From Massalongia carnosa (lineage: Eukaryota): a stretch of DNA of 64,000 nucleotides. The position numbers and the translations under genes are program-made. Below the pieces are notes generated by a model that worked only from the letters and a program-made list of their open reading frames with translations, searched no databases and was not told the origin of the DNA. Below, one piece after another: positions 9,489 to 60,158 of the stretch. Positions within the stretch are counted from its first letter, which is position 1. Every line of letters begins with the position of its first letter. The stretch lies in contig OZ287082.1 in assembly GCA_965645245.1 (NCBI GenBank), positions 930,001 through 994,000 of the forward strand. Direction: 5' to 3'.

Positions 9489-10071
9489 TGTGGGTCTCGA
9501 TTAGAGGAGTATTGCGCAGAGGGAACGTGAGGTACGATGCGAATATGAATGGCGTGGTTATCGTCTGCACAATATAAGTAAAGTCGCACGAATTGGAGGG
9601 AGGATCAAACAGTTCAGCTGATTCTCACCTTTGTCGGTGAGGTATTTAAGTTGCGTCGATGAAAAATCGTAAAGTGGGGTCGGGTTCTTTCAACGTAGGC
9701 GGCAATCTGCGCATTTAAGAGGCTGTTCAGAGAACAAGTCGGAGCATAGTAAAAGCGCACAGCGCAAGATGAGGTAAAAGTGAACGTTGATGCTCAACGG
9801 AAGGTGGGTTCCTTAGGAATTCACCACTGCACCCTGGCATTTCGTTGCCGAGGTTGCACTAGCACAGGGCGATCACTTTCACCCAGCCAGCTTTCTTCCC
9901 AAAACTGCATTGTTCTTTTCAAAGCTGTATAACGACCTGTCATAAAAGTATCTAGAAATTCATAAGAAGTTTTCTTCCAGTCCTGTTCCGATCCAGTCTC
10001 CAGCAGTACGACCCTCAATTCGCGACGAGACTTTGCCCGGCGTCTTCTGGCCCGGCGCCTTCTGTCTCGAG

Positions 10072-12504
10072 ATGGCCAACCTTTCACAAGACGATCGAAA
10101 TGTCATCGCAAAGCATCCTTTGGACAACTCTCTAGATCATTTACGGGACTCACTTCAGGCAGAGCAATCTTACGAACCTAGCTCGACTTCTTACGATGCT
10201 GCTGGTGACAATCGTGGTCAGGGACCCCTAAAGGCAGTCTCAAGACTTCTCAATACCTTGCAAGGCCACGATGTCGCCCTTACTCTTCGATCAAAGATCG
10301 CAGCCGGAGATCTAGCTTCTGAGTTATACAACCTCTTCAGACGTGTCCGAAATGGCGATTTCAACTATAAACACTACCTCGCGCTGTCACGCCTTGTCGT
10401 CAGAAAAGCCCCTGATGTCGACATCTGGAATGCCGTCTTCGACCTCATCACCACCGTCTCTCGAACGACCCCTCCTACAAGCATTCCTCTCTCGTGCGAC
10501 GGCACGCCCATCACGCACTCCTCCGCATCGCAGCAGGCTAGCGAACAAACTCGCCGTGAAGTGGAAAAAAGGGTTTTCGAGGAAATCATGGGCTGTACAT
10601 TCCGAAATGTGGAAGGATTCTTCCCGAAATACTTTGAAGGAAAAGATTGGACCGAGCGTACCAAGGAGATATATCGAGCCGTGCAACATCGACATGTCAA
10701 CGGCAGGTGGACCGATTTCCCTCATCCGCCGGTGCAGAACGCTCTTCTCGAATGGTGGTTCGCTTTCCAGAAGGAGTTTCTAGCCGACGCTCGAGGTGTC
10801 TACTATACAAGTGAGAGCAGCAAAGACCTCACAGGCGCTGAAGCTCGACGTCAACTTGATGTCTTTGTCAAGCCTAGCGGCAAAAACATTTCGAACACAG
10901 TACATGATTGGAAGGACGTTGAAGTGATTGGTGAACTTAGGGAGTCCGACAGAGAATGGAAAGTTAAATTGCTCCAACTTGGCAGGTATATGCGCGATGT
11001 CTTTGCCACTCAGCCAACTCGCCGATTTATTCACGGATTTACTCTCCTCGGATCTACCATGGAACTGTGGGTTTTCGACCGCTCCGGTCCTTACAGCTCA
11101 GGAGTCTTCGATATCCATAAGGAACCTGAGCAATTCATCAGAGCTATTGCAGGGTATACGATGATGAGCGACGAAGAGCTGGGCTTGGATACGTTCACGG
11201 ACCAGGACAAGGAATACCGATCTATCACTATTACCGAAGATGGGACTGACAAGGAGACAAGACTACAGCTTGAGCCGGATCTTATTGCATATCAGCGGGC
11301 AATTGTCTGTCGTGGCACTTCTTGCTTTCGTGCCGGTGTTTCAGGTTCTCAGGATTCGCGGTATGTTGTTAAATTCTCCTGGACATCTGATAAACGACAA
11401 TCAGAAGCAGATCTTCTCAGATTAGCACGCGAGAGAGGAGTAAAGGGAGTCGCCAAACTATTTGGTCACCGCTGCATCACCAATATCGCGGACATGCGCG
11501 AAGGATTGACTTTTACGAAGATGCATAACTTTCGAAACACCACGTTCAGTCCGTCCTTTTCGCAGTCTCAACCACAGAACCTCCTTTGTCAATCGTTCAG
11601 TCAGCTTCATGGTCTGAGCATCGCCGGTGGTTCCCCAAGAAAACGAAAGTCTGTAGATGCGGGAGGGAGGCCGTCCAAAAGATCAAGGTCCAACATCCAG
11701 AGATCCGATATGATCAAGCAGGAAAAGGAGGTAACAAAGACCGTGGAAGATACCCAGACAGCGAGTCTATATGGCCCCAATGAGAGTTCATTCGACAACC
11801 GCATCTTTCGCTGCTTAGTAATCTCCCCGGCCGGCCGGGGTATCCGTGATTTTCAGTCAACCAAAGAGCTTTTAGAGGCACTTCGCGATGCAATCAAGGC
11901 GCATAGATCCTTATACCTTGTAGGCAATATTCTTCATAGGGACATCTCAGAGAACAATATCATAATAACAGATCCAAAGAAAGCTGATGGCTTTACGGGC
12001 ATGCTGATCGACTTAGACCTTGCCAAGAAGATGAATAGCGGGCGAGGTGGCGCACGGCATCAGACAGGCACTATGGAGTTTATGGCGATTGAAGTGCTAC
12101 GCAGAGTCGCTCATACCTATCGGCATGACCTCGAGTCGTTCTTTTATGTGCTTCTATGGATCTGCGCTCGTCGTGCGTGGGAAAGGGAATTTGGGTGCAA
12201 GTTGGTGGATAGACCCAGGAAAAGCATTTTAACGAAGTGGTACACGGGCGATTATGATGATATCGCTCGAAGTAAACGAGGCGATATGGGTGTTGACGGG
12301 TTTGAGGAACTCTTGGAGGAACTTCCACAGATATTCGATTGTGTCAAACCCCTTTGTAGAGAGATAAGGGGTATACTATTCCCGTATAAGGATGGGCTGT
12401 TCACCGGAACCCCGCTGGATCCAGAGGAGCTATACGGGCCTATCCTTAAGGCATTCGATAAGGCTATAGCTGAGATAACCCGCGCGGAGGGGAGCTTGGG
12501 ATAA
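10072..12504 (+). CDS. FunK1-family fungal protein kinase (~810 aa, intact, no intron apparent)
   Basis: VIGEL, QPTRRFIHGFTL, WVFDRSG, RAIVCRGT, VVKFSW, LHRDISENNII, LIDLDLA, TGTMEFMAIEVL, HTYRHDLESFFYV. Confidence 0.92.
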   Translation: MANLSQDDRNVIAKHPLDNSLDHLRDSLQAEQSYEPSSTSYDAAGDNRGQGPLKAVSRLLNTLQGHDVALTLRSKIAAGDLASELYNLFRRVRNGDFNYKHYLALSRLVVRKAPDVDIWNAVFDLITTVSRTTPPTSIPLSCDGTPITHSSASQQASEQTRREVEKRVFEEIMGCTFRNVEGFFPKYFEGKDWTERTKEIYRAVQHRHVNGRWTDFPHPPVQNALLEWWFAFQKEFLADARGVYYTSESSKDLTGAEARRQLDVFVKPSGKNISNTVHDWKDVEVIGELRESDREWKVKLLQLGRYMRDVFATQPTRRFIHGFTLLGSTMELWVFDRSGPYSSGVFDIHKEPEQFIRAIAGYTMMSDEELGLDTFTDQDKEYRSITITEDGTDKETRLQLEPDLIAYQRAIVCRGTSCFRAGVSGSQDSRYVVKFSWTSDKRQSEADLLRLARERGVKGVAKLFGHRCITNIADMREGLTFTKMHNFRNTTFSPSFSQSQPQNLLCQSFSQLHGLSIAGGSPRKRKSVDAGGRPSKRSRSNIQRSDMIKQEKEVTKTVEDTQTASLYGPNESSFDNRIFRCLVISPAGRGIRDFQSTKELLEALRDAIKAHRSLYLVGNILHRDISENNIIITDPKKADGFTGMLIDLDLAKKMNSGRGGARHQTGTMEFMAIEVLRRVAHTYRHDLESFFYVLLWICARRAWEREFGCKLVDRPRKSILTKWYTGDYDDIARSKRGDMGVDGFEELLEELPQIFDCVKPLCREIRGILFPYKDGLFTGTPLDPEELYGPILKAFDKAIAEITRAEGSLG

Positions 12505-16483: not shown

Positions 16484-18520
16484 GTAATGAAAATCTCACG
16501 TTAGTCTTTCTCCTGTCATCTTGTCAATTCCTCGAAAGGGATTCCTACACAATTGAATTAAAAACTATTCACTTTTGAATCAAACATAAGAGATATATTT
16601 TTTTGAAAAATAATCAAAAACTATAATAGTAGAAAAAATCTGCAATAAATTCCCGAGTATTCAAATATTGCGGATATAAAATACAAATATAAAACAGTCA
16701 ATACAAATCAAATTAATTCAAAAATCGAATCGAATTTATTGTTAACAAACGTGTTGAAATAAATATATGATTATAATTATATGATTATATAATAAATAAC
16801 AATATGTATGATGATGATGATGATGATTCTTATTCCGATGTGGTACCGGCCGAAGGCCGGCCCATGCGGGCGAGTCTATCTAGTTTTATAGTACATGGAA
16901 AACCTTTTGAGGAAGAAAAACCATGCAATCCTGTGTCCGGCCGAGGACTCTCCGGGTCCCAGCCGTGTGCTCCATGAAAAAACCTTTGACCTAAGACAAG
17001 TATGAAAAATGAAACAAAGCATGCCTACTGTTAGCAGTATAGATGCTGTGCTGTCAGCGAAAATTGTGACAACAAACCTGTCTTCATTAGCCACTTTGTG
17101 ACTAATTTCATTGCTTTAGATGACTCAGTGATTAATCGGTAGTTGTTTGTGCCTATCGTATTTAGCAGAGTTTTTCTGTTGTCGTTGAGTTTGCAAAACA
17201 TGATCACATGTTTTGCAGTCTGTTTGTGCCAGCCACATGAGCAGTTTGGGGACGAGACGTCTGGGACTCGGTGTCTATGTAGGAAGGCGGCTAGGCCTAT
17301 CTTTTCTGAGCGTATCTGAATGGCTAGCGCGCTCTCCGCTTTGGCTAGAGTTTCGTGCAATTTGATGCGTTTTTTGGAGAGTGAACCTGATTGTGCCGGG
17401 GTGGGAACGGGTGTGCGTTCCTGATATGATCTCCACGAGGCCTGCCATGCAACTGTGTGTCGTTTTTTTATTTGAGCAGTTATTTTGTTATGAGCGGCGC
17501 GTGCCTCCTCTATTTCTCGGGTGAGATTCGGGGGGGATTCGGCCCATGGTGGATTTGGTATCGGTGTTGGAGGGTTATGTGCCTCCGATGTGATTCTCTT
17601 AGCCCAGGCGTATTTCAGCGTTCCTGAAGTGATGACTGGGGCCCTCTTGCGTCCTGCCCGACCTCGAAGTTTATTGGCTATTTTGTTGCATGCATTTGTG
17701 ATGAAACTCTTTTGACCATTTCGACACAGGCGTTGTCTGGTCTGGGCCTGTAGTTGATCTAAATGTATATCAATTGAGGCTATAAATGTCTCCGCTTCTA
17801 GTACAGCTATGGGCGTTGCTTTGAAGGCTCCGGCTATGTTTCTTAGACATTTGTTTTGTATGACAGCCAGTTTTTTTGAGATGACGTTTGATTTTTGAAT
17901 TTCTTTTGGCATGTGCCAAATGGTGGAGCCGTACGTCATGGCCGGCCTGACTACGGCGGTGTAAACCTGGCGTGCCTTTAGAAGAGTGGCGCCCCATGTG
18001 GAGGTGGATATTTTTGTCAATGCCCTGGATTATTTTGTCATTTTTTCCTAGATTTTCCTTGTGTGAGCACCCTATTTCAATTGTGAATCGATTTGAAGTC
18101 CTAGAATTCTGATGTCTGTCTTTGGTTTTATGATGTTATTTCCTATTTGAATAACAGTGAACATGTTGAATTTCTTCGGATTTCTTGACAGATGTATCAA
18201 TTCGTATTTCTTCGGAGCGAAGACTGAACCATGTCGACTTGCCCATTTTTCACATTTTTTGTGAATTACCTCTAGCGTCTTGCAATTTTCTTCGGTGCTT
18301 TTTCCATATGCTAGCACATTGATGTCATCTACGAAGCCTAGAGCACTCGTGTTGCTGCCTGGTCTTTCACATATGTCTAGTAGGTGTGTATTGTAGAACA
18401 GATAAAGAATAGGAGAAATGGGGGAGCCTTGTGGGATTCCGGTTTTTACATCGAATATGCCCGTGACTCGGCTGTGAATCGCCAGGGTAGTGCTTCTTTC
18501 ATTCAGAAAACTGTTCACCC

Positions 18521-22900: not shown

Positions 22901-23474
22901 GCTGCGGAATAGCTGTTTGTGGTTGTTGTGGCTGTCTTAGCACTTTCGATACGGGCTAGACTTCTTTGTATTTCAGTCAGGGTGTCGTGAATGGGCTTCG
23001 GTATGTTTTCGTTGTCGTTGTCGATGCTTCTCTGATTATCGAGAAAATTTTTCACCTCCTCTAGAATCCTGTTCCCTCCGGTTCCCCTCCGTCTCCTATG
23101 CCTATCAGATAGTCATCTATCTTGTACAGCAGTTGATCTCTCTGCTCCGCGTGCGCGATCACGAACGTGTTTTCGAGTTGAATGTTCATCGCGTCCTCCG
23201 TATCTGGTGATGTTTTTCGCGATAGTTTCTATATAAATGTGATCATATGTCAATTCAACAAATCACTAGTTGATCTATGTCTGACTGGATGAAATCTCTT
23301 CACGTCAAGGTCATTCTTCAGCCTTGGCGAACTGCTATTTGACAGCTTTTTGTCACGGACTAGGTCCAGATAGGGAGATATGCAAGAGTTACTATTAGAA
23401 AGCTAGGTCTCATAACAATATGTATAATCTTGATATACAAAACAATAATAATTTATTGGAGTTTATATGACGAA

Positions 23475-23643
23475 TGTAACGAAGAGAGATAGTGAATAGA
23501 TTTCTACCATTGCGCCGCCTGTCCTACTGACTAAAAGGCCAATACTTAGTCCGCAGACCAAGCTCTATTCTACTATAACTGGGACTCCTGCTATGTTCGC
23601 TATAGGTGCTGCCGTCCGCACCACGCATGGTCAAACCGTCACA
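23475..23643. mobile_element. solo LTR (169 bp), copy 1
   Basis: TGTAAC...GTCACA; TSD ACGAA; similar to 25137-25307. Confidence 0.9.
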
Positions 23644-23716: not shown

Positions 23717-25086
23717 ATGATGATGATTTATTCATACTCCGATATGTTACCGGCCGTAGGCCGGCCCATGCGGGCAATGCTATCTAAGTTATGTTATATG
23801 GAAAACCTTTTCCAGGTGTAAAAACCATATCCCTTAATACCTGTCCGATGTGACACCGGGTCGACGTCGGACAGGAGACGCAGAGCGAAAATCATATGAG
23901 AACTGTGACGCCTTGTGAGATAAGAAGGAAAAGAGAAGTAAAACTACTGTTAATTGTACAATAATGTAGATGCTAGTGAGAATTGGGTCAGTAGACCTGT
24001 TTTCATTAGCCAAGTAGTTAATATCTTTAGAGTTTTATACGTTTCGGTCAGCTGTTGATAGTTGTTCGTGCCAGCGGCGCAAAACATCTGTTCTCTATTG
24101 TCAATAAGTCTACAGAACATAACTACGTGTTCTGGAGATTGTCTGTGCCAGCCACATGGGCAGGCCGGTGAGGTGACGGCGGGGACCCGTCGCTGGTAGA
24201 GGAAGTCAGCTAGACCGATCTTACCGGTGCGGATCTGTGTTGTCAGGGCGCTTTCTGCCTTTTTTAGCAGCGTGTGTATTTTCAGTCGTTTTTTGCTCAG
24301 TGGGACTGATTGCGCTATGGAGGGTTCGGTGACGCGATTTTGATATGCACTCCTCGAGTCGTTCCAGACTTTCAGCTGTCGTGCTTTAATTGTCTGCATT
24401 TGTTTTTGACGAGCCAACGCTGCTACGGAGACTTCGCGGAGATGCGCTGGGGAGGGGTCGGACCATGGTGGGTGTGCTTTGGGTGGTTGAACGATTTTTG
24501 CGTCGATCAGTAGGTTTTTGGCCCAGGTGTGCTTCAGCTCTCCCGGAGTGGATTTTTGAAGGCGTTTGCGACCTGCCTTGCCTCGGAGTTTGTTAACTGT
24601 TTTGCTGCATGCGGAAGAAATGACCTTCGATTGACCTCCGGCTCGGAGTCGATATCTGGCCTGCGCCTGTAGCGTGTCGAGGTGTACATCTACGGGGGCT
24701 ATGTATGTCTCTGCATCAAGAACTGGAATGGGAGTGGCTTTAAAGGCACCGGTTATGGTGCGAAGGCAGTTGTTTTGCATAACTGAGAGCTTGCTCGTTG
24801 ACGTTTTTGACTTTTTGACTTCTTTGGGCATGTGCTATACGGTTGACCCGTATGTCATGACCGGACGCACTACAGCGCTGTAAACTTGCCTTGCTTTGGT
24901 GAAGGTGGCACCCCAAGTCGATGTGGAGATTTTTGTCAATGCCATGGATTGTTTAACCATTTTCTTTTGCGTTTTGCGAACGTGCGGTCCCCATTTCAAT
25001 TTGGTGTCAATTTGCAAGCCTAAGACTCTAATGTCCGTTTTTGGTTCAATTTCGGTGCTTGCAATGTTGATAGATGCAGCCATATT
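23717..25086 (-). mobile_element. 5'-truncated Tad1-like LINE (family B), ORF2 C-terminus and 3' UTR
   Basis: Highly similar to 52870-54188 plus 62635-62689; (CAT)n tail; in-frame TAG at 24835-24837. Confidence 0.92.
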
Positions 25087-25136
25087 ATTGAAATAGGTAT
25101 ATGGTTATAACTATATGGCTATGTAATAAATGACAA

Positions 25137-25307
25137 TGTGACGAAGCGAGATAGTGAATAGATTTCTACTATTGCGCCACCTGTCCTTCCCGACCAAAAG
25201 GCACAATACTTAGTCCGCAGACCAAGCTCTATTCTACTATAACTGGGACTCCTGCTATGTTCGCTGTAGGTCCTGCCGTCCGCACCACGCTTGGTCGAAC
25301 CGTTACA
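25137..25307. mobile_element. solo LTR (171 bp), copy 2
   Basis: TGTGAC...GTTACA; TSD GACAA at 25132-25136 and 25308-25312. Confidence 0.9.
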
Positions 25308-25315
25308 GACAATAT

Positions 25316-28300
25316 CTTTGGAAGGGGACTGATATCAAAGGATAGGGGTATTTGGCTTAGGAAGATAAGTGAAAAGACTGAATTCTAGATGATAGTTTAC
25401 TAGTCTGATATTCAAATCTGATAAAGAGCATCTATCTACATAGGAATTCTAGGCCCTATTTATAATGATATCTGACCCCAGAATCTCATTATTGATGCCT
25501 AGATTCCTTGATGTTGATAGATGCTCTTTATCAGATTTGAATATCAGACTAGTAAACTATCATCTAGAATTCAGTCTTTTCACTTATCTTCCTAAGCCAA
25601 ACACCCCTATCCTTTGATATCAGTCCCCTTCCAAAGGGTTATGAGCCCGGGTTAGTGCACACTGCCCGGTATTTTTCCTAAAAAAACCTCATAGATTCAT
25701 CAAACAATCATGTCGGCCAAAATGGGACAACTTACCTACGAAGTCAAGCCCTTATCAGGCCCCCAGAACTATAAGGAATGGAAAACGGCCATGGAACATA
25801 TTTTATCGGTGGACGGAATCCTGAAAGTGGTCAACGGCAAAGAGACGAAACCAATCGCTTCACCGAAAGAACCCGATCAAGGATCCTCACTAGAGGATAT
25901 CAAGTGGTATCGTAAACAACTTGATTCCTTCGACAAAAAGGTAACTAAATGGGAAGACAAGAATGAGAAGGCCTGTGGCCGGATCAAAATAACCTGCTCC
26001 AAAGAAGCCCTAGTGGAAGTAGAAAAACTCGACTCAGCAAACGACATATGGAAGAAACTAATGGAGTTCGACCATCCTGAGTCCACCGTCCTCAGAACTG
26101 CCCAGAGACAGTTGATCAGAGCATCCCAGTCCAATCATAAATCCGTTCAGGAATATGGTGCCTACATCAAAAAGGCTGGACAGGACTGTGACAACACCGG
26201 GAAGAAATTTGATGATTGGATGCTAAAAAACTTCTTCACTCATGGTCTCAATTCAGATCTAGAAACCTACATAATTCCTCAAGAACAACAAGCCGAGAAA
26301 GTCGGTAAACCCCTTTCGCTAGACGACATGATCAAAGTACTAGTGGAATACGAGGAAAGAATCAAGGATCAGGAACAAGAAGCAAAGGTTCTAACTCAAA
26401 AGAAACCAAAAAGAGAAGGAAATAAGTCAAAGAAACCTTGCGGTGGATGCGGAAACCCTGGACACGGCAAGGATAAATGCTATTACCTCAATCCTCATCT
26501 CAGGCCAAAGAGTTGGAAGCCTGCAAAAGGCAAAGAAGGTCTGGTAAAGGAAGACGAATCCGGCGACAACAAATCTTCAGAGTTTAAACCTACCATGATA
26601 GCCACACTCAAAATGGCAATTACCACCAAGAGTCTGAAGACTGCAGCTAAGGACGTCAATTGGTGGATGGATTCAGGAAGTGATGTGCATATCTCTTATG
26701 ATAAGAACCTCTTTTCAACGCTCAAATCCGTCAAGAAATCGGTGATGGGAATTCAGAATTCACCCCTGGAGATCCGAGGAACTGGAACGGTTATCTTACA
26801 ATGTAATGTTGAAGGTATTCAGAAACAACTCATTATGCAGAACGTTCATTACTGCCCCGATGCGGAATACAATCTTTTTAGCATAGGAACTGCAGAACAG
26901 AAAGGGTTCGAATTTACTATAAAAAATGGTAAAGTCGAGTGCTCAAAGTCAGGACAGGTGACCCTCACCGGCACCAGACATCAACAAGGTGCAACCTACA
27001 CTATTGACCTCTATGAACCGAAAACTCTGAAGATGTCTGATAGTAGTGTTTCGTGGACCAATTGGCATAAACGACTAGCCCATCTAAGCATCGACGACGT
27101 CAAAAGATTACCGGACATGGCCACCGGAATCGACGTATCAAATGCAACCAAATTGGAATCCACCGAATCCCATCCAGCGATATGTGAATCGTGTGCGATA
27201 GGGAAACAAACCCGAAATCTGGTGAGAATCCCAAGGGATAGGGCCACCAAGATAGGGGAAATCATCCACACCGATATAGCGGGCGGGGGGAAGTTGCCTC
27301 AAACCCTCGGCGGTGCCCGCTATGTCATGTCTCTGATAGACGATTATTCCAACTTCATGACTATTTATCTTTTAAAGAAGAAGTCCGAGGCCGAAAAGGC
27401 CCTAAAAGAGTTTATAAACTTCATGGAAAATCGACAAACGCCTGTACAAATTCTTCGAAGTGACAATGGAGGGTAATATTCCTCTAATCACACCCAAGAA
27501 TTATTAAAGAACATAGGCATTGAATGGAATCCTACCGCCCCACATAATCCCAATCAAAATGGTGTAGCCGAACGAAACTTTAGAACACTGTTCGAAAGAG
27601 TAAGGGCTATCCTTCACCATGGAAAAATGACTCGAGGATTCTGGGGGGAGGCAATCGGGTATGTGTGTTATCTCAAAAACCGAAGCCCCACCAAGCGACT
27701 AAAGGATAAGACTCCGTACGAGGTCTGGACGGGTAAAAAACCCGATGTCAGCAATGTGAGAATATTCGGATGCACAGCCTATCATTACAATGTAGACCCA
27801 TCAAAGAAGAAATTGGACGACCGCTCTATCAAGTGCAGATTTTTAGGAATCAGCGGCCAGAACCAATTTCGCCTATGGGACCCTTCAGCAAAGAAGGTAA
27901 TAATATCTGCAAATATTCTATGGGACGAGACCGATGCAGGTTGGTCGAAAGAAAATCTAAAAGATGAGGAATCAGAATTAGGAATCTTTTTATATTCTAA
28001 TACGGATGACGAATCTGCGGACACTAGTACCGCAATAGTTAGCGCTCCCGGGGAGAAAACTCCTGAACCAATCACAGCTGCCGAAGTGATCGAGGAAGCG
28101 AGCAACCTAACTGAATCAGGACTAGAAGAGGGAACCAAAGATAACGACATGGCATCTACTCAACTAATCACTGAAAATATCAGGGCAAATTTACCAATTG
28201 CACCCTGCATCTGAGTCGACATTAAGAAGAACTTCTAGACGCACTGAACGTCAGGACTATGCCAAAATCAGCGACCCCTACAAGAGAGGATTTGCACTCC

Positions 28301-30240
28301 GCGCTCTCAAAGCGACGGCGACAGACCACCGAGAACCGCAATCCTACGAAGAAGCCTTGAAGTCTGAATATTCCGATGAATATCAGAAAGCTATGGACGA
28401 GGAGATAGAGTCTCACAAGGAAAATAATACCTGGACTCTCAAGAAACCTCCGAAAAATGCTCACATACTACCAGGTAGATGGGTTTTCAAAATCAAACTC
28501 GGACCTTATGGGGAGATCACCAGATTTAAAGCCAGATGGGTGGTCAAAGGATTCCGTCAATTGGAAGGAATTGAATATGACGAGACCTTTTCCAGTGTCA
28601 TAAAAGCTATGATCTGGAAAGCCCTATTGGCTATAGCTGCTAAATATGATTTAGAAGCCGATCAAGTCGATATCATCACCGCATTCCTAGAAGCAACCCT
28701 CACCGAAGAAATATGGGTAGAGCAACCACACGGGTATGAAGTCCCACATCAAGCTTGCAAATTAAATCGAGCACTCTATGGACTCAAACAATCCCCGAGA
28801 GAGTGGTACGAATGCTTAACCATGTATCTGAGACAGAGAGGTTACAAACGGGTAAATGAGGATTACTCATTATTCGTCAAAGAAAGGATGATAGTTGCGA
28901 TATATGTTGACGACTTACTATTAATCGGACCCAGCAAAGACGACATCGCGAACCTAAAGAAGGAACTATCCGATCGATTTAGAATAAAAGACCTGGGACC
29001 AGTCAACTGGTATTTAGGCATGCATATCATAAGGGATCGACCTAATAGGACTATCTACATCAACCAAAAGGCATATGTGGAAAGACTCTTAGAGGCAATG
29101 GGTATGGCCAATTGCCACTCATGCACGACACCCATGAATGCAGATCTTCGAAAGGAAGATCATCAAGCCTCAAAAATAGAGGTTAAGGCCTATCAGCAAA
29201 TACTCGGATCATTGCTCTGGTTGGCAATTATGACCAGACCAGACATAGCATACTCCGTCAATAAGTGCAGCAGATACGCCAGCAACCCTGCACCGAATCA
29301 TGACGACGCCGCCAAAAGGATCGTCAGATATTTAGCAGGGACTCGAGATCTGGGCATAAAATTTGCTCCGAACCTCGAACAATCAGGGGAGTTAATCGGA
29401 TATACCGACTCCTCATATGGGGACTGCCTAGATACTAGGAGATCCACCTCAGGCTATATATTCATGCTCCATAACGGACCTATCAGCTGGGCAACCAAAA
29501 GACAAAGCATAGTCGCCACCTCCACTACCGAAGCGGAGTATATCGGCCAATGCAACGCTGGAAAGGAAGCAGTATATTTAGCTAAAACCCTGAAAAGCAT
29601 CGGGTATGGTGTCAACGGACCGATAAATATCAAAGCAGATAATCAATCGGCCATGAAACTAGCGGCAAATCCGATATATCACCCCAAGTCAAAACACATC
29701 GATATCCAATACCATAAGGTAAGGGAATTAGTGGATCATGGGGAGATTGAGTTGGATTATATATTTACTGAGGATATGGTGGCCGACGGCCTCACTAAAC
29801 CTCTGAAGAAGGCCAAACATCAGAAGTTCATCGAACAACTGGGCCTAAATAAGCCTAAATAGGTAATCAGTACGGCTTCATATGTCTCCAGAAGGGGAGC
29901 TTTGGATTCTGTCCAACATTCGCCACCTATGTTGTTGCCTACACTAATGCCTATGCTAGTGATATCTATCCTGATGCTTACACTGATGACGTTTATCCTG
30001 ATGCCTAAATGAAGGTAGCAATGTTGCTGGCTAAATAGGCAACATCAAGGAATCTAGGCATCAATAATGAGATTCTGGGGTCAGATATCATTATAAATAG
30101 GGCCTAGAATTCCTATGTAGATAGATGCTCTTTATCAGATTTGAATATCAGACTAGTAAACTATCATCTAGAATTCAGTCTTTTCACTTATCTTCCTAAG
30201 CCAAATACCCCTATCCTTTGATATCAGTCCCCTTCCAAAG
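25316..30240 (+). mobile_element. Ty1/Copia LTR retrotransposon with CT...AG termini and a rearranged (inverted) 5' LTR
   Basis: TSD AATAT (25311-25315, 30241-30245). PBS GGTTATGAGCCCGG at 25637. PPT AGAAGGGGAG at 29890-29899. 3' LTR at 29900-30240. Confidence 0.93.
25710..29862 (+). pseudogene. Copia gag-pol (gag CCHC, protease, integrase, RT, RNase H) with a stop at 27474-27476 and a frameshift near 28200
   Basis: CGGCGNPGHGKDKC; WMDSGS; WHKRLAH..CESC; HTD/SDNGG/VAER; KARWVVKG; LYGLKQSPREW; YVDD; YTDS; ADNQSA; KHIDI; MVADGLTK. Confidence 0.95.
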
Positions 30241-30254
30241 AATATAATATGTAT

Positions 30255-33200
30255 CGGCAAATTACTGAGATGACCCCCAAATAACCCCCCCATCTTGCCT
30301 GGGGGTTATTTGGGGGTCAATTACCGTAATATACACGTAATTTTGCTTCTGGCGCTGTCACGATGACCCCCAAGAACTGTAATTAATTGAAGGGGTCATT
30401 TGGGGGTCATTTGGAATATTGCGACCGCACAGTTAAATGGCACGCACGAGGAGAAGTCCATTGAGCATCGGCTACCCGATAAAAGCCTTGCTACTCCAAG
30501 AAAGAAGACATGATTACGGCGATAAAAACGAGCGACTAGATATCTGTAGCCCGATGATCGTGCGATATCGGGGGGTCAATCATAGGTGAAGTGACTGAAC
30601 CTACCAATTACAGCTCTATAACTTTCTGCTTTAAGTGTTATAGGCCAATGAAACTCCATAGAATGCTTAAACAAGGCATTTGGACTACGTGGCACTCGGG
30701 CTATCTAGCATTAACTCGGGACTTATTTGTGCATACCTTCGTCCATCATTTCTGCATACTTATGTCTCGTTCAATCTCACTATGGCCGAATCATCAACAA
30801 TGTCGCTTTATGTCGGTCAAGAGTGGGACGATAAATATGAGACAAGACAGGCGATCACTAACTGGCTTGCAAGCAAGGGTGAGTCATGGCGTGTTGAGAA
30901 GGCCGAGAAGAATAGATATCTAGTTAAGTGCGATCATTGTGACTTTCGAATCAGAGCAAGCTTGTCCAACAAAACTGGGAGATGTAATACTTAAATGTAT
31001 AAGAGCTAAGACAAAGTAATACTGACATTAGATCAGGGAAACTCACTAAAATGATCCCTCATACCTGTGCCATATCGAGCCACTCCGGCCATTCAGGTAG
31101 CAATGCTGTTCAGTATTTAGCCACCAACAAGACAAATCAAGCGCTTGTGCAATCTGATCATCGGGTTAAATCAAGGCATTTAATGACCGTCGAGACTTCC
31201 AGTCGAGGAAACAACACAAACTATATGGCGATGTGGCGCACAAAAGAGTTTCTCAAGATTAAGCGGTTTGGCAATATTAAGCAAAGCTTTCAATATATAC
31301 CTACATTCTTGTCAGCATGCGAAGAACAAAACAATACACGAACAGCATGGACAAATCTGGAGCTAGATGAGAACGGTTGTTTCAAACGATGTTGGGTACT
31401 GCCAAAGGCGACTGAGCGTGCTTTTCGTCATTGTCGTTCGGTGCTTCAGTGTGATGGTACCGCTTGCAAGACATCGGACGGGCTTGTGATCTTGTCTCTT
31501 GTTACTCAAGACGGTAACAACCAGGTATTGGAACTGGCGTGGGCATTGGTCCCAATCGAGAACAAAGATAACTGGATCTATTTTTTACGGGCAATGGCAT
31601 TATATATTCGATTTCGCTCGGGACGACAAGCGGTGATTATTAGTGATCGCAACAAAGGTATCAAACATGCAGTATCTGATCATTTTCCTGTCGCTTTAAG
31701 TGCTCATTGTTGCAAACATCTCGGAGACAATGTCGATAAAAAATGGAAGAAGACATATCGGAATCTTTTCTGGGATGCGGCCAAAGCTAAAACACAAGCA
31801 AAATTCAACACTATACTCAACAGAATTAGAGCGACGAGACCTAATTGCGCAGGCTATATTGAAGACATACCTCCAGAGCAGTGGGCTGTATATGCTTTTC
31901 CTCGTCCTCGATATGGTCAATTATGTTCTAATGCTCAAGAGTCGCAAAATAATATTTGGCTGGAGGCACGTCACATGCCCGCATTGCTTTGTCTCCATCA
32001 GATTTGGAACCAATGCATGGACAAACTTTATGAACGGCACAAGCTTGAACACAAGACAGATAGAGTCACTGATTATGCCTGGAGATGGATTCAAGATGGA
32101 CGGAAACAATCGGCCGAGTATACTGTTCAAAATTCTCGTCCTTTCTGCGGTATCGTCACTGATTATGCCTGGAGATGGATTCAAGATGGACGGAAACAAT
32201 CGGCCGAGTATACTGTTCAAAATTCTCGTCCTTTCTGCGGTATCGTCACTACTGGTACTGGAAGTCATCACATCGTGGATCTGGAAGCCAAGACGTGTAC
32301 TTGTCATGATTTTCAGGATTATGAAATGCCATGTGATCATGCCGTTGCGTTGTGTATGAAGCAAGAAAGAGAACCAGAGGATTTTGTCAGTCCCATCTTT
32401 ACAATCGCTCAGTACAAGGCAACATACCAGTCATTTTTACATCCTATTGATCTCAATGTTCTCGCAGCGGCCGATGTGAAACCACCAGAATTTGTAGTCC
32501 AGGCTGGTCGCCCAAAAATCAGACGTGAAAGAAGAAAACGATTTGATTTATCAAAGCAGAGGATGAGATGCTCAATCTGCAAGAGTTTCAAGCATAACAG
32601 GCGTACATGTGATCACTCGGGACCTTCCGCGAGTGACGTTTCTGCTAGTACTGCAAGTAGTAGATCCAAAAACTGCTTCTGTCTCTCAATCTAGTCACAA
32701 CGAAGATGAAGTTGATAAAGAGAATGACAATGACTCTAATGACAATAATAGCGACAGCAATCATGACGGCGAGAGCGACAATATGAGTGTTCATACTGAC
32801 ATAAGTGACTGGAATGGATTCAGTGATCGTTCTTTTGTTTTTAGGTCTCGCAGATTCTCGGCTCAAAACGATGAAGATATTGCGACCGAGAGCGACAAGA
32901 GTTTTACATCTCATCGCGACAAAAATATTACCCTCGAGAGTGAAATGAATTCCTCATCTCGATCTCAATCGTCGTCAATTGTAACAGACTCATCGGAAGA
33001 GACTAAGGAAGAGCAGAAGAACTATGCTCGTTGGGCTATTGGATGGCTAGATATGGACGAGGCACAGTTACAACAATTTCAAAGGTTTGATATGAATCAG
33101 ACGTTTGCTGGAACACTACAGGGACATAGAAATTACAAACGTCGCTTTCCAGAGGCGGCCGAAGAAGAAGCTCGCAAAAAACGAATACTTTATGCTAAAC

Positions 33201-34278
33201 AGGTACGTACTCACCTTAAGATTAATTCATGGCTAATCACTGAGAGCAGGGTCGAAGATATCTGACAGAGCGACAGTATCAAATTATCGTTCCTCATTTC
33301 GAGCATATAGCTCCAGCTCCATCGTCGCATACTTCAGTTCTTAGAAAGTTGTTCACCCGCCCATTATGGACGTATCCTCAAAGACGATGTCCTCTTCCTC
33401 TACGCATTCCATTAGGAGAGCCAACACCACTTTCGGAAGGGGAGAGAACACCAGTGGGCTATGATTCTGATGACTTTCCGTACGAGAAAGAAGATGCATT
33501 ATCGGAAGAGAGAGAGGAAGTCGAGAATACATTAGCGGAAGAGCGACAAGAAGTCGAGAATACATCAGCGGATGATGAGCGACAGGAAGCTGATAATATA
33601 CTAGCGGAGGAGCAAATTTGGAGCATGCTAGAGAAAGGTAAAGAACGTGACCGGGCACTGATCTCACCTCGTAAATCTAGATCTGGACGGATATTGAAAC
33701 CTACTGTTAGAGCGCAAGAAGCTTTAAGTTACACACAAAGCATGCCAACTTAGCGAAGGCCGCTTTAGAAAGCTCTAGAGAAGTGTCATTGACTGACTTA
33801 ATAAACAAGTCACCTCCTCGAAAACGACAAAGGCGAGGGACAAAGCCGAGTCAATAGATGGGTCTAGAGATTATCCTTATAGAGAGAAAGGATAAGCAAT
33901 CGTGTTTTCTGTCATGAAGTGACAGAGCATCTGCCGGTGTTTCATGTGCCACTTCTTCGGAGGCGATTTTTTTGGTGAAGGAATGACATCGAAACATGAT
34001 AGTCTGGGGATGGAAAATTAGATCATGATATTGTATTGTGATGTTTTCTGTATATTTTTGTATAGGTATCTAGTCGCTTTTCCTCGTGCTTGTCATTTAA
34101 TCGTGCGGTCGCAATATTCCAAATGACCCCCAAATGACCCCTTCAATTAATTACAGTTCTTGGGGGTCATCGTGACAGCGCCAGAAGCAAAATTACGTGT
34201 ATATTACGGTAATTGACCCTCAAATAACCCCCAGGCAAGATGGGGGGGTTATTTGGGGGTCATCTCAGTAATTTGCCG
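30255..34278 (+). mobile_element. Mutator (MULE) element with ~200-bp fold-back TIRs; no TSD found
   Basis: CGGCAAATTACTGAGATGACCCCC... at 30255 and its reverse complement ending at 34278. Confidence 0.9.
30782..32694 (+). CDS. MuDR-type transposase (DBD, MULE DDE, SWIM, Zn knuckle), probably disrupted; acidic C-terminal extension continues to ~33850
   Basis: QCDGT, TQDGNNQV..LAWA.V..ENKDNW..F, ISDRNKGI, HCCKHL, ESQNN, CTC..FQ...PCDH, CSIC...HN.RTC. The first intron is not resolved. Confidence 0.85.
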
Positions 34279-39655: not shown

Positions 39656-40461
39656 TACATGCATGCAGACATAAGTTTAAGTAGTCCGGTCGGAGCTTTT
39701 CTGGAAGCTCGACGCACTTCAGAAGTGCTAAAATAGCTCATGAACGGCCTCAAGCCCGCTGAGTCAGTGGGGGCTGACATTTCCGAAGTGCTAGTGTACA
39801 ACATAGTAGAAGCCCTCACCGGTCAGCAACGTGGCCAAGCCCAGCGCCATCCCTGTGCTATCTGCAAGTTGGGAAATGGCTCATGCTTTTTAATGTTGAC
39901 TCCTGACACCTTGAGCATTAGAACGTGGCAACGATACAGCTTAAGTAATTACCAGCCGCTCCCTAATAACCGCCTCTAAAATGTACCATAACTAGTATTC
40001 TTACGCTAAGTTTTTAACTAGGTTGCACTCGGAGCGCCATGTGCTGCTGGCTAGTCGCCATGTGCCGGTGGCTAGCTCTTGTAGTGGCGCTTTTGCTTAT
40101 CATTGGCCCCCAAAAATGATCCAACGTCGATGTCGGCTCACATCAGATCACCGATGCCAATACTGAGGTAACGAATTGATCACTTGGTGCATAATATAAA
40201 TAATGAAAGGGATGGGTCTTCTGTTTACTATCTGCAGAGATTTTATCTAAACTCCTAAGAATGCAAGCTAGCCTGATCTGGTAATCGCAGTCACCAACTG
40301 CCTGACCACAGACTAATATCAACAGGGAACTAGCAGATCTGCAGTCTAACCCAAAGATGTGGTAGTTGGACGGGAACCGTTGGAGATGCTTGTCTACGCC
40401 TGGAATGCACATGTAAGCATTAGGAAGCTTAAAGGTATCTTTACCCGACGAGATAAAAGAA

Positions 40462-43125
40462 GAGTACGGATACGTGGACACCCCTTAGGTTACCTGGACA
40501 CCCCCTGAGGTTACCTGGACGCCCCCCAGTGAGACACGGACACCCCCTTCCTAGAATAGATAAGAATCAAGGGTTCAGCCCTCTCACTTACCCATTTCGG
40601 GGTAAGCTCCCGAGTGTGCACCTCGGGAATTTTTTTTTCAACCGTAAACACCAACATTTTGGCACTTCGTAAACATCAACATCACCAACATTTTGACACT
40701 TCATCATGTCTGCACCACCTCCTGAAGGACTTGCACCCCTCGAAGATGAACCAGCTACTCCAACCAGACCACCTGGCCCTCTACCCCCTGGCGGACTTGC
40801 ACCCCCTGAGGATGGACAAAGTTTTGAAAGTCTGGAAGACCTGGTTCTACGAGTCAATGAGCATGCTGGTCGTCAAGGATACGCAGTCGTTTTGGGTCGA
40901 ACCAAGAAGTCGAAACTTAAGGTAACGAGAAAGACACGGCTGATATGTGATCGAGGAAGAAAAACCGACGGACCAAGAGGTCAGGATCGGCGACATACGG
41001 GTAGCCGAGAATTGAATGCCCTTTCTCTTGTGTGGCCACACGAGAAAACGACAGTGGTATCTGGTTTTTGGAGGTGGTCAAATCGACTCATAATCATGCT
41101 TCTACCTTCGCTGGTGCTCATCCAGCGTTGAGGAAATTGGCGATGGCGAAAGAGGTTAAAAGCGAGATTTCCCGAGCTCTGATCGTGCAAACAGCCCCTT
41201 TCAAGATTTTATCTAGTCTTCGTGTTGCTGATCCGACGACGGGAATCAATTTTGACGATCCAGAAAATCCCTACATCATCAATCCCTTATTCAAACCTCG
41301 GGATATCTACAACGTCAAAGCACAGCTTCGTCGCGAGACACTCGGCCCATTGACTCCGGTTCAGGCATTAATCCGAGAGCTGGATCAAGGAGATTGGACG
41401 TATCAGATGCAAAATGATGATCTAGATAGAATAACTCATTTATTCTTTATTAAGGGCTGTTCTCAACGACTATTGAAGACGAATTACGAGGTGTTGGTGA
41501 TGGACGCCACTTACAAAACCAACAGATATAAGATGCCCTTATTGATCATCAATGGTCAAACCGCCCTACATACCAACTTCTGTGTGGCATTTTGCTTCAT
41601 GGCCAAGGAAGCCACGTCTGATTATACCTGGATGTTGCAGCAATTGCGAGGTGTGTATGATGGGATGATGCTTCCTAACCCGATCGTCATAGTCACGGAC
41701 ATGGGAAAGAGTCTGATAGCTAGAATTGAGGATGTTTTCCCCGCAACCAATCATCTGCTTTGCTTATGGCACATCAATAATAACGTCCTGACCAATTGCA
41801 AGAAGAGCTTCGATACTAAAGAGGCGTAGGACTCCTTCTTCGCTGACTGGAAAACGGTCGTTTATGCCTCGTCAGAACCAGAGTTTTTGGAGTCATGGGA
41901 GCGATTCAGGATTCAGTATCAGGGTCAGGATCAATGTGTGGAATATCTGAACGACATCTACATACCCTTCCGACATCGTTTTGTCAAGTGCTATACCAGT
42001 ATGATTGCTCATCTCGAAACCACCACTACCTCTCGAGGTGAAGGCGGGCATGCAGTACTTAAGCGACAGCTAGGGTCATCATCTGGAGATCTTAAGACGG
42101 TGGTGGACGGAATCAATCTTCTATTGATCAATGAACTTCACAATCATCTGATTCGTCTTGATGAAGCGAAGGTAGGACTACCTATGGATATTCGCAAACC
42201 TATCTTTCAGGAAATCAGTCCATACGTCACTCCCTACGCTTTGAGAAAGATAATGCCTCAATACGAACGTTTGGTTGGTCAACCAACAGCTATTCCGGCT
42301 TGTACTGGAACGTTCAGCTTAACCATGGGTCTTCCGTGCAGTCATAAGATTCAGGAACGATTGTATGGGGATTGGGGGGGAAAGTTGCTATTGGAAGATA
42401 TTCATCCTCATTGGAGGTTTGATAGGACAGCCCGTGTGGCTATTGATAATCCTTATCTTCGGGTTCAGGCACCCGAAGTTGCTAGACCAAGAGGCCGACC
42501 TCCAGGTGCGGAGAATTTGAATAGAAGACAGCAAGCATTCGAGGCATCTACTAATCGTGATCCTTCCCTTTTCAAGCGGGTGGACCCGGATGCAGATCAA
42601 TCAGCCGTTCATCGAGCGGACCCGGCACCTGGTCGTGGACGAGGCAGACGGGGACGGGGACGGGGATCGGGACGGGGACGGGGACGGGGATCGGGACGGG
42701 GACGTGGACGGGGAGGTAGGGCTAGAGGAGGGGTTATAACGAGGGGATTGGCAGATAGGCTGACTGCAAATGACTCGGATGCGGGGACGGCGACAGGGGG
42801 GGGGGGGGGACAGCGACAGCAAGCGGAGATGAGGAGGTTATCATCATTACTTAGACCAAATGAGGCTTAGTTTCTAGAATCAGAGTCTGATTTGCAAAGA
42901 CAGTGCCAATCGACTTCGTTTCAGAAATTCCCGACCACTTTCAAAAGGTGAAGGAAAAAATTTCCCCGATATGCGCCCGGGAGCTTACCCTGAAGTGGGT
43001 AAGTGAGGCTGAACCCTTGATTCTTACCTATTCTAGGAATGGGGTGTCCGTGTATCACTGGGGGGTGTCCAGGTAACCTCAGGGGGTGTCCAGGTAACCA
43101 AAGGGGTGTCCACGTATCCGTACTC
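40462..43125 (+). mobile_element. Mutator (Hop-like) element; transposase 40706-42870 with a frameshift (~41010) and a TAG (41827)
   Basis: ~180-bp TIRs GAGTACGGATACGTGGACACCCC...; 8-bp TSD TAAAAGAA; motifs MDATYKTNRY, VTD, LCLWH, TTSRGEGGH, MGLPCSH; RG-repeat tail. Confidence 0.93.
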
Positions 43126-43608
43126 TAAAAGAAAGCACCAAAAAGCCTTTAACGGAACCCTAAACAAGCTGGAAGTAAGTTACTGTACTCCGTACTCTTT
43201 TAATCTAAGCCCACGTTTTCGTCTCACTTGCGGTTGTGTCAGAAGCCATGCCTGTCCTGTCAGATATTGTTCTGCTTTGTGAGCACAAGGCAGGGCAGCA
43301 AGGAAAGTTCCGTCCGGATGGTCGGGGGATTCGAAACGTCTTGGAACAGAGTAGCCGTTTTGACGGGCTGAAACGAGACAGGGCTCTCGTCCAACCGACC
43401 TGCCGGCTAGGTGTTCCCCTAATGCGGTGTTTAACGGGTTAGAAAGTAACCTTTTCCCCTTATGGATTAGCGCGCTATTCACCACAAAATGCTAAGACCT
43501 GCCTTAAATCTTGCCATTCATCGATTTTCCACTTTACTGTTCTTCTATGTGCTCGACAAGACTTGCATACCTTCTTATAACAAGCAATATCGGGCCTGTA
43601 GTAGCGAC

Positions 43609-52510: not shown

Positions 52511-54722
52511 TCCGAAAATCTTAAGATTCGATATTTTGAATTATAAGATTTTTTCAAATCAGTTTGAAATCGTTGTATGTTTTTAAATGTCATAAACTTC
52601 AATGAACGAAATTTTCTTGCTGCTTATTGTCAATTGACAAAAAATGTCGACATAAAAATAACTTTTTGTTAAGATTGTTTGGACATTTGTTCGCTTTATC
52701 ATTTTTATTTGCGATTGAGTATTTTAATTCAAACATGCCGCAAGATGTGGGCATTCTTAATGTTAAGTTCTTCGTTCTTTCTGATATATTTGTATGGAGC
52801 GTTATAGACGTTATAGGAAAACAAAATTTTATCGAGAATAATAAATCCCAATGCGTTCAGTCTTGATTAGATGATGATGATGATATATTCATACTCCGAT
52901 ATGTCACCGGCCGTAGGCCGGCCCATGCGGGCAAAGCTATCTAAGTTATGTTACATGGAAAACCTTTTTCAGGTGTAAAAACCATATCCCTTGATACCTG
53001 TCCGATGTGACACCAGGTCGACGTCCGACAGGAGACGCAGAGCGAAAATCATGTGAGAACTGTGACGCCTTGTGAGATAAGAAGGAAAAGAGAAGTGAAA
53101 CTACTGTTAACTGTACAATAGTGTAGATGCCAGTGAGAATTGGGTCAGTAGACCTGTTTTCATTAGCCAAGCAGTTAATATCTTTAGAGTTTTTGATGTT
53201 TCGGTCAGCTGTTGATAGTTGTTCGTGCCAGCGGCGCAAAACATCTGTTCTCTATTGTCAATAAGTCTACAGAACATAATTACATGTTCTGGAGTTTGTC
53301 TGTGCCAGCCACATGGGCAGGCCGGTGAGGTGACGGCGGGGACCCGTCGCTGGTAGAGGAAGTCAGCTAGACCGATCTTACCGGTGCGGATCTGTGTTGT
53401 CAGGGCGCTTTCTGCCTTTTTTAGCAGCGTGTGTATTTTCAGTCGTTTTTTGCTCAGTGGGACTGATTGCGCTATGGAGGGTTCGGTGACGCGATTTTGA
53501 TATGCGCTCCACGAGTCGTTCCAGACTTTCAGCTGTCGTGCTTTAATTGTCTGCATTTGTTTTTGACGAGCCAACGCTGCTACGGAGACTTCGCGGAGAT
53601 GCGCTGGGGAGGGGTCGGACCATGGTGGGTGTGCTTTGGGTGGTTGAACGATTTTTGCGTCGATCAGTAGGTTTTTGGCCCAGGTGTGCTTCAGCTCTCC
53701 CGGAGTGGGTTTTTGAAGGCGTTTGCGACCTGCCTTGCCTTGAAGTTTGTTAACTATTTTGCTGCATGCGGAAGAAATGACCTTCGATTGACCTCCGGCT
53801 CGGAGTCGATGTCTGGCCTGCGCCTGTAGCGTGTCGAGGTGTACATCTATGGGTGCTATGTATGTCTCTGCTTCAAGAACTGGAATGGGGGTGGCTTTAA
53901 AGGCACCGGCTATGGTGCGAAGGCAGTTGTTTTGCATAACGGAGAGCTTGCTCGTTGACGTTTTTGACTTTTTGACTTCTTTGGGCATGTGCCATACGGT
54001 TGACCCGTATGTCATGACCGGACGCACTACGGCGCTGTAAACTTGCCTTGCTTTGGTGAAGGTGGCACCCCAAGTCGATGTGGAGATTTTTGTCAATGCC
54101 ATGGATTGTTTAACCATTTTCTTTTGCGTTTTGCGAACGTGCGGTCCCCATTTCAATTTGGTGTCAATTTGCAAGCCTAAGACTCTAAACGCACCAGCTT
54201 GCTGGGGGCTAGTGAAGTTGTCACCGTGACGGACGGTACCAGGCGTGTAAGCGGGATAGGGCCGGACGCTAGCAGGGAGGTGAAAAACTCTTCACCTCCT
54301 CCATCCCCCCATCTCTTCTCTCTTTCCTCATCAACACTCATCAAAAATCGTGTTTCGCTGTTTCTCCCACCCGCCCTCTCCTACACAGTCTGTCGCTTAG
54401 ATAGATGGAGTATGTCTTGACCCCAGGGTTCGCATCTACAGCGTCCATGGACCCCGTAGCCTACCCGTTGCGGCTCCGTACCCGGCGCGGACGGCGCACG
54501 AACGGTGTCATTGTGACGAGACGAACTCGGTGAGATAAGATCAGGTGGTACGAAGTCTTTGCTATAGGTAGGCTATCGGATATTTACAAGACGTTCGACA
54601 AGGAAGAAAGAAAATCTCAACAGCGAAAGCAGAGATATAATCTTTCCGTTGATCGCGCTAACCATGCTGAGCCTAGCCCTCGCGTATCATTCAAGCCTTA
54701 GCTCCGTTACTTGATTCGGGTG

Positions 54723-59841: not shown

Positions 59842-60158
59842 GGCAAAGGCGTACCAGCTGATAGGGTAGGTCGAACGTAGTGTGACGAGACGAACTCGGT
59901 GAGATAAGATCAGGTGGTACGAAGTCTTTGCTATAGGTAGGCTATCGGATATTTACAAGACGTTCGACAAGGAAGAAAGAAAATCTCAACAGCGAAAGCA
60001 GAGATATAATCTTTCCGTTGATCGCGCTAACCATGCTGAGCCTAGCCCTCGCGTATCATTCAAGCCTTAGCTCCGTTACTTGATTCGGGTGCTAGCGAGG
60101 CAGTACCGTGACAGTCATGCCACACCCTAGGGTCAGGACTTCGCCCAAACACTAGAAT

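Follow-up and report, generated by a model that had tools for sequence, protein, structure and literature searches.

A Ty1/Copia retrotransposon with a palindromic left end in Massalongia carnosa, a probable product of minus-strand self-priming

How can a long terminal repeat (LTR) retrotransposon come to lie in a genome with the same end of its LTR at both extremities, one of them folded back on itself? This question is raised by a Ty1/Copia element in a stretch of 64,000 nucleotides from Massalongia carnosa (assembly GCA_965645245.1, contig OZ287082.1, positions 930,001 to 994,000 of the forward strand); this whole stretch is called the window below and all coordinates refer to it. In the place of a 5' LTR, the element carries an inverted copy of the last 201 bp of its LTR joined to a direct copy of the last 120 bp, while its 3' LTR is intact and a 5-bp target-site duplication (TSD) abuts both ends. 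The insertion is probably the integrated product of minus-strand self-priming, which stood in for plus-strand strong-stop DNA; in other words, the favoured view is that the complementary DNA (cDNA) was already abnormal when integrase inserted it as a single Ty1/Copia element. The features on which this explanation rests are given below, with LTR positions counted from 29900 and the LTR divided into its unique 3' (U3), repeated (R) and unique 5' (U5) regions.

25311-25315, no strand: left copy of the TSD, AATAT, identical to 30241-30245
25316-30240, plus strand: the whole Copia element, a Ty1/Copia LTR retrotransposon of 4,925 bp
25316-25435, minus strand: inverted arm, reverse complement of LTR positions 222-341 (R-U5-like), its outer end being the U5 terminus CTTTGGA
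25436-25516, minus strand: inverted copy of an 81-nt U3 quasi-palindrome, 100% reverse complement of 30040-30120, the proposed fold-back hairpin
25457-25464, minus strand: inverted TATA box, reading TATTTATA, within the inverted 81-nt U3 copy
25517-25636, plus strand: direct partial LTR (positions 222-341), 119/120 identical to 30121-30240, the proposed snap-back copy of the inverted arm
25636-25649, plus strand: primer-binding site (PBS), complementary to the anticodon arm of initiator tRNA-Met, for priming of the half-tRNA type
29890-29899, plus strand: polypurine tract (PPT) AGAAGGGGAG, read directly and abutting the LTR start
29900-30240, plus strand: intact 3' LTR of 341 bp, with a 7-nt terminal inverted repeat CTTTGGA/TCCAAAG
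30040-30120, plus strand: native 81-nt U3 quasi-palindrome, which encloses the TATA box and whose two feet are the two breakpoints
30092-30099, plus strand: native TATA box TATAAATA, 29 nt before 30121
30241-30245, no strand: right copy of the TSD, AATAT, identical to 25311-25315

The architecture of the left end agrees in every structural detail with the initial annotation of this locus, which had described a 5' LTR rebuilt as a palindrome and lacking its normal U3. Indeed, (i) 25316-25516 is the exact reverse complement of 30040-30240, with no mismatch in 201 positions, and the repeat search returns 202 nt, as the flanking T25315 and A30241 pair too; (ii) 25517-25636 aligns directly with 30121-30240 with one mismatch in 120 (C at 25602 against T at 30206), and at this diagnostic base the inverted copy sides with the 3' LTR and not with the adjacent direct copy; the LTR copies present one difference in 321 compared bases; (iii) LTR positions 1-140 (29900-30039) have no counterpart elsewhere in the window according to blastn; (iv) the junction between the two copies reads ATGTTG/ATAG, where the native sequence reads ATGTAG/ATAG; and (v) the 321-nt left end is predicted to fold into one nearly perfect hairpin (-244.5 kcal/mol with RNA parameters), none of 100 shuffled sequences being as good.

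The element belongs to the Ty1/Copia group by the order of its protein domains, namely Retrotran_gag_2, Pol_BBD, gag_pre-integrs, rve, SH3_retrovirus and RVT_2 (Pfam), and by the positions of a PBS next to the 5' LTR and of a PPT next to the 3' LTR. The PBS is complementary at 14 of 14 nt to positions 29-42 of the Escherichia coli metY initiator tRNA, a comparison made with an E. coli and not with a host tRNA; a tRNA scan of the window found no tRNA gene. Use of the anticodon arm of the initiator tRNA as a primer (half-tRNA) is described for Ty5 and copia in passages of a published report (PMC5371799). The element departs from the group in that two direct LTRs are not found, since only positions 222-341 are direct at the 5' end, positions 141-341 being inverted and positions 1-140 absent; the LTR length of 341 bp is therefore based on the PPT abutting 29900 and on the 7-nt terminal inverted repeat, there being no normal 5' LTR for comparison. 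This copy is thus a structurally aberrant member of a Ty1/Copia family. Membership of the fungal GalEa clade of Copia elements, which is characterized in parts of one study by the lack of a PBS, a palindromic 9-bp motif at the LTR end, a hairpin site conserved downstream of the 5' LTR and the motif QTDD in the reverse transcriptase (PMC5445492), was considered and ruled out by the presence of the PBS and of YVDD in the reverse transcriptase (open reading frame (ORF) 28393-29862).

The orientation of the spacer between the two 120-nt arms bears on the direction in which the left end was made. Taken as a reverse complement, the spacer matches the LTR at 100% identity, and a direct alignment of 25442-25636 with 30048-30240 reaches only 88% overall, despite an R-U5 part that matches at 119 of 120 positions; the spacer is therefore inverted relative to gag-pol. 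Read along the top strand, 25316-25650 is unbroken: LTR positions 341 to 141 in minus sense are followed by positions 222 to 341 in plus sense and then by the PBS. Because this continuous strand has its 5' end exactly at the U5/PBS boundary and runs into U3, it reads as minus-strand DNA, which points to snap-back; it goes from the minus-strand start, by way of a hairpin, into its own complement.

A feature that goes beyond the earlier description is the quasi-palindrome around the TATA box (30040-30120). These 81 nt are identical to their own reverse complement at 62 of 81 positions, with 30 predicted pairs, and their feet coincide exactly with the two breakpoints, 30040 and 30120/30121. The energy of the predicted fold is -14.9 kcal/mol as minus-strand DNA (z -6.25, none of 200 shuffles as good) and -27.2 kcal/mol as a hairpin of the template RNA (z -4.7). 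Among 81-nt windows of the LTR it is the best self-complementary one, with a score of 28 against 22 for the next, the maximum in the internal region being 11 (837 windows); in a comparison with free ends it is among the 5 joint-best of 7,650. Every hairpin of 12-130 nt closing on a Watson-Crick pair was also scanned along the LTR minus strand with DNA parameters (8,500 cases). By the time synthesis, running from 30240 downwards, arrives at 30040, 4,187 of these closings exist; the observed junction is 3rd among them, and the closing in first place is the same hairpin, 2 nt shorter. Two of the earlier observations are to be read in this light. The resemblance between ATGTTG/ATAG and ATGTAG/ATAG is not a separate coincidence, because both are arms of one imperfect palindrome. 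Likewise, the start of the direct copy 29 nt past the TATA box, which was confirmed (TATA box at 30092-30099, copy start at 30121), need not mark a transcription start, because the foot of the hairpin explains it equally well.

The flanks and termini bear on integration. The TSD AATAT is perfect and abuts both U5 ends; a match of 5-mer flanks at the same spacing occurs at 65 of 59,065 positions of the window, i.e. a background of 0.11%. Such a duplication on both sides is short and of the integrase type, the TSDs of retroviral integrases being given as 4-6 bp in part of one article (PMC11054761). It is taken to show that the unit was inserted whole, or at the minimum that an integration event produced its outer ends. 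The native U3 and U5 termini have CTTTGGA in common, and a cDNA with two U5 ends would be usable by integrase because the native termini already share this sequence. Intasomes are customarily assembled from two U5 oligonucleotides; as for a published statement that integrase accepts two U5 ends, only general passages were found in the literature searched.

Self-priming would have proceeded in the following manner. (i) Synthesis of minus-strand DNA would start at an initiator-tRNA fragment on the PBS and proceed through U5 and R; it would go on into U3 for 81 nt, whether by way of the first strand transfer or because the template was a read-through RNA. (ii) At LTR position 141, the new strand would have just finished the 81-nt quasi-palindrome around the TATA box. 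(iii) Its 3' end would fold onto the hairpin, with a terminal G:C pair, one T.T mismatch and a long imperfect stem; the terminal G would pair with the C opposite position 221, in which case the next base copied would be 222, as observed, and reverse transcriptase, templated by the minus strand itself, would make a plus-sense R-U5 and a copy of the primer, i.e. the PBS. (iv) The resulting strand (inverted U5-R-U3(81), then direct R-U5-PBS) would have the 3' end of plus-strand strong-stop DNA and could undergo the second strand transfer, its acceptor being a full-length minus strand for which the co-packaged RNA had served as template; this transfer is deemed feasible because the 3' end would be a plus-sense PBS, provided that such a full-length minus strand is at hand. 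(v) The completed linear cDNA would bear a U5 terminus at both ends, and integrase would insert it with a normal 5-bp duplication.

The closest described reaction concerns HIV-1. According to passages of one report, the 3' end of nascent minus-strand strong-stop DNA folds at the cTAR hairpin and is extended on itself by reverse transcriptase, which produces an inverted R-U5 duplication (PMC6088434), as proposed here for the Copia element. That reaction is described in vitro and before strand transfer (PMC6088434), whereas in the Copia element the fold would lie on a U3 hairpin 81 nt past R, the 3' end would carry the PBS, and the product is integrated with a TSD.

Several points weigh against self-priming. 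The structure is known from a single copy, and neither a second copy nor a solo LTR of the element was found in the 64-kb window by blastn. The observed closing ranks only 154th of 8,500 over the whole LTR, since every closing with a better score belongs to a larger structure around this core. When the 201-nt minus strand is folded as a whole, the best structure with the hairpin reaches -21.9 kcal/mol, against -23.7 kcal/mol for the minimum-energy fold, and the mean probability of the pairs of the hairpin is 0.40; furthermore, extension of the 3' end would have had to start beside a T.T mismatch, adjacent to the terminal pair. Two minus strands would have to be present in the same particle, and the arm-to-arm mismatch at 25602 needs a later mutation or a polymerase error. 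The passages available on HIV-1 call self-primed products dead ends for the first strand transfer and state that they were undetected in endogenous reactions (PMC6088434). Finally, a two-step template switch after insertion yields an identical sequence.

This last route, a rearrangement of a normally inserted element, is unlikely but is the alternative that survives best. In it, a stalled fork or a broken end would have switched templates twice. At the first switch, a top-sense 3' end made of the flank and CTTTGGA (LTR 1-7) would anneal to TCCAAAG (LTR 335-341) in the same or the 3' LTR, which would be copied backwards to position 141; at the second, the strand would re-anneal by way of the homeologous arm of the palindrome and resume at position 222. 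Homology is available at both junctions, as a 7-nt terminal inverted repeat and a 19-nt imperfectly pairing arm, and the TSD would be retained as well. The difference at 25602 would be natural if the inverted copy had been templated on the 3' LTR after the LTRs had diverged, without any later mutation. Short templated inverted duplications formed at breaks by fold-back also have a precedent in yeast, but these are mostly of 5-34 bp in the portions of the study concerned (PMC11724301), against 201 bp here. Moreover, this route demands that both switches be precise and that LTR positions 8-221, no more and no less, be lost, it leaves without reason that the outer end is the start of the minus strand, and its simple one-step fold-back versions put the spacer in direct orientation, contrary to the observation. 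The initial annotation had left the choice between an aberrant strand transfer, giving a two-U5 cDNA that still integrated, and a template switch after insertion. Aberrant reverse transcription followed by integration is favoured by the present analysis; the term 'aberrant strand transfer' is too unspecific, and snap-back self-priming is indicated.

A reverse-transcription error of another kind, in which no hairpin takes part, appears improbable. For instance, a minus strand that had arrived at the 5' end of the RNA, at position 222, would jump end-to-end to the 3' end of a second minus-strand DNA, of 201 nt. The TSD and the U5 ends fit this scheme too, and the direct copy starts 29 nt past the TATA box, a plausible transcription start, but the 3' end of the donor (...GAGCATCTAT) has no homology to the sequence beside position 141, and the stop of the second strand exactly at the foot of the quasi-palindrome is left unexplained.

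An assembly artefact, by a fold-back chimeric read or a mis-join in the LTR, is judged quite improbable. Palindromes are a familiar product of chimeras of libraries and reads, and the one-base frameshift in a C run near 28203 could be a consensus error. Against this, the inverted piece has only 201 nt and lies in the interior of the window, its left boundary is unique flank with a matching 5-bp duplication and its right boundary the foot of the hairpin, the arms differ at one base, and elsewhere in this assembly the two 233-nt LTRs of a Gypsy element are resolved although they are 100% identical. It is hardly credible that two elements are involved, one present as an inverted solo LTR or truncated copy and the other, 5'-truncated, facing it head-to-head after a deletion had joined them: transposons are dense in the window and their insertions nested, but the matching outer AATAT (0.11% background) and the position of both breakpoints on the feet of the palindrome would then be coincidences, and the three LTR pieces are virtually identical.

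Other routes were tried and rejected on their predicted products. Fold-back of a chromosomal nascent strand at the 5' LTR predicts an inverted arm followed by positions 141-221 in direct orientation and then 222-341, which is not seen. The same wrong spacer orientation (141-221 direct) is predicted by fold-back of a resected double-strand-break end and by snap-back of a minus strand while it copies plus-strand strong-stop DNA. Had the palindromes of the two LTRs recombined to give an inversion, U3 positions 1-140 would have been retained at the left end.

Among better known systems, minus-strand self-priming has the chemistry of the hairpin-primed second strand of classical cDNA cloning, where the first strand turns back at its 3' end to prime synthesis of its complement, but in the laboratory and outside any transposition cycle. 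In LINE-1 twin priming, an inverted 5' part with an intact TSD arises during cDNA synthesis. LINE-1 is a non-LTR element that uses target-primed reverse transcription, and its inverted piece is a part of the body and not a duplicate, unlike the Copia element, which has an integrase, LTRs and an inverted duplication. In DIRS-like elements, inverted terminal repeats are the normal state of the family, which uses a tyrosine recombinase. The Copia element resembles them in being a retroelement bounded by inverted and not by direct terminal repeats; membership of this group, marked by a tyrosine recombinase and the lack of a TSD, was ruled out by the DDE integrase (rve), the 5-bp duplication and the normal 3' LTR. 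The complex LTR retrotransposons attributed to template switching during reverse transcription (Sabot and Schulman 2007, PMC1950507) share with the present case an abnormal cDNA formed in the particle and inserted as one unit, but, as presented in that article, they are fusions of two parents sharing a direct LTR (PMC1950507), whereas the Copia element has an inverted self-copy of one LTR end. No precedent for an integrated self-primed or palindromic 5' LTR was found in the literature searched, most of the subscription-journal retrovirology of the 1980s and 1990s lying outside that search.

The coding region of the element is interrupted. It consists of the following ORFs.

25710-27476, plus strand: gag, beta-barrel domain, pre-integrase domain and start of the integrase core (Pfam Retrotran_gag_2, Pol_BBD, gag_pre-integrs, rve), with a premature stop at its end
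27477-28214, plus strand: remaining integrase and SH3-like domain (Pfam rve_3, SH3_retrovirus), in the same frame as the previous ORF and with a frameshift at its end
28168-29862, plus strand: reverse transcriptase and RNase H region (Pfam RVT_2, E 9.5e-65), in another frame

Among named relatives, those closest to the reverse transcriptase belong to ascomycetes, with approximately 47-50% identity. A cluster of proteins at 90% identity has 8 members, including P0126, an uninterrupted polyprotein of 1,379 aa from a contig of 4,319 nt, which is 99.5% identical to the copy in the window. The latter differs from P0126 by three substitutions, by the premature stop (27474-27476), which lies in the integrase core where P0126 has a residue, and by a one-base frameshift within 28198-28208, in a short C run. 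The frameshift may be genuine or may stem from an erroneous assembly consensus; P0127, a cluster member from another contig, reads through this site. The reverse transcriptase and RNase H ORF (28168-29862) is 99.5% identical to residues 826-1379 of P0126, and further members of the cluster, from contigs of 2.08 Mb and 4.7 kb, are fragments with 96-99% identity. The family is young and probably active, because an uninterrupted relative is 99.5% identical and the LTR copies differ at only 1 of 321 bases. An exact search with a 24-nt stretch of U5 and PBS returned no match in bacterial and archaeal contigs, where a blank was expected.

The altered left end would have consequences for transcription. 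U3 positions 1-140 are absent from it. The inverted copy contains the whole core promoter, which would face out of the element, into the left flank, and only a TATA-like mimic, TATTTATAAT (25457-25466), would point toward gag. Transcripts from either promoter would carry R-U5 in the same sense and would not pair with one another; therefore, a hairpin RNA, and with it the possible dsRNA/siRNA source put forward in the initial annotation, would need read-through across both arms.

Nor is the palindrome expected to be inherited by retrotransposition. In the replication scheme of LTR elements, the U3 of the progeny is copied from the 3' LTR, which is intact here, so that the structure would not pass through RNA; therefore, it cannot be a 'replication mode', and any further examples would be independent events. 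This copy, which has a stop codon and a frameshift, would be a one-off, dead fossil of replication, unable to pass on its palindrome. It is defective and has no evident function.

If self-priming is the correct explanation, the locus would be a natural, integrated record of a side reaction of reverse transcription that is known mainly from test-tube work on retroviruses. It would indicate that a hairpin internal to U3 can redirect minus-strand synthesis, that the product can replace plus-strand strong-stop DNA, and that integrase accepts a cDNA with two U5 ends. The signature for annotation is an inverted U5-R-partial-U3 followed by a direct R-U5-PBS, with an intact TSD and with the breakpoints lying at a hairpin, a structure that standard LTR finders would overlook or annotate wrongly. 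A bolder extension, that the TATA-box hairpin in the U3 of this family is a recurrent turn-round and that self-primed minus strands regularly replace plus-strand strong-stop DNA and integrate, is doubtful. Were it true, self-priming, which is held to be a dead end, would be a productive side path of LTR-retroelement replication, genomes would be seeded with long perfect palindromes at element ends, which would also be fragile sites, and such loci could, with read-through transcription, yield hairpin RNA against the R-U5 leader of their own family.

The window is a transposon-rich fungal stretch, in which Pfam searches identified two Mutator-like transposases, pogo/Tc5 and hAT fragments, LINE-like reverse-transcriptase fragments, a chromodomain Gypsy element and a fungal-type protein kinase. 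On the left of the Copia element, two direct repeats of 182 nt (23464-23643 and 25127-25307, 91% identical) are located around a stretch of 1.3 kb (23717-25031) that contains a LINE-like reverse-transcriptase tail on the minus strand and matches 52874-54188 at 97% identity and 16791-18127 at 66%; the Copia insertion point lies 8 nt past the end of the second repeat (25127-25307). On the right, a Mutator-like DNA transposon (30255-34278) begins 14 bp from the Copia element. It has terminal inverted repeats of 202 nt (30255-30456 and 34077-34278, 97% complementary) and a MULE transposase ORF (31003-32694), whose frame contains a perfect 90-bp tandem duplication (32065-32244, two copies, 100% identical); a matching 9-bp TSD was not seen beside the repeats as delimited. 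The second Mutator-like element (40461-43126) has terminal inverted repeats of 120 nt, 96% complementary, and an ORF with a MULE domain (41005-41829) that is interrupted before 41830.

The chromodomain Gypsy element (54512-60113, minus strand) encodes a gag of 429 aa, a protease of 220 aa and a protein of 1,108 aa with reverse transcriptase, RNase H, integrase and chromodomain; it looks like a very recent insertion, because its two 233-nt LTRs are 100% identical and its ORFs are long. Among the few scanned ORFs that belong to a family of host type and not of transposon type is one of 852 aa (9946-12504, Pkinase_fungal, E 6e-141). Finally, an ORF at 13735-14358 matches an OTT_1508-like deaminase domain (E 1.6e-9).

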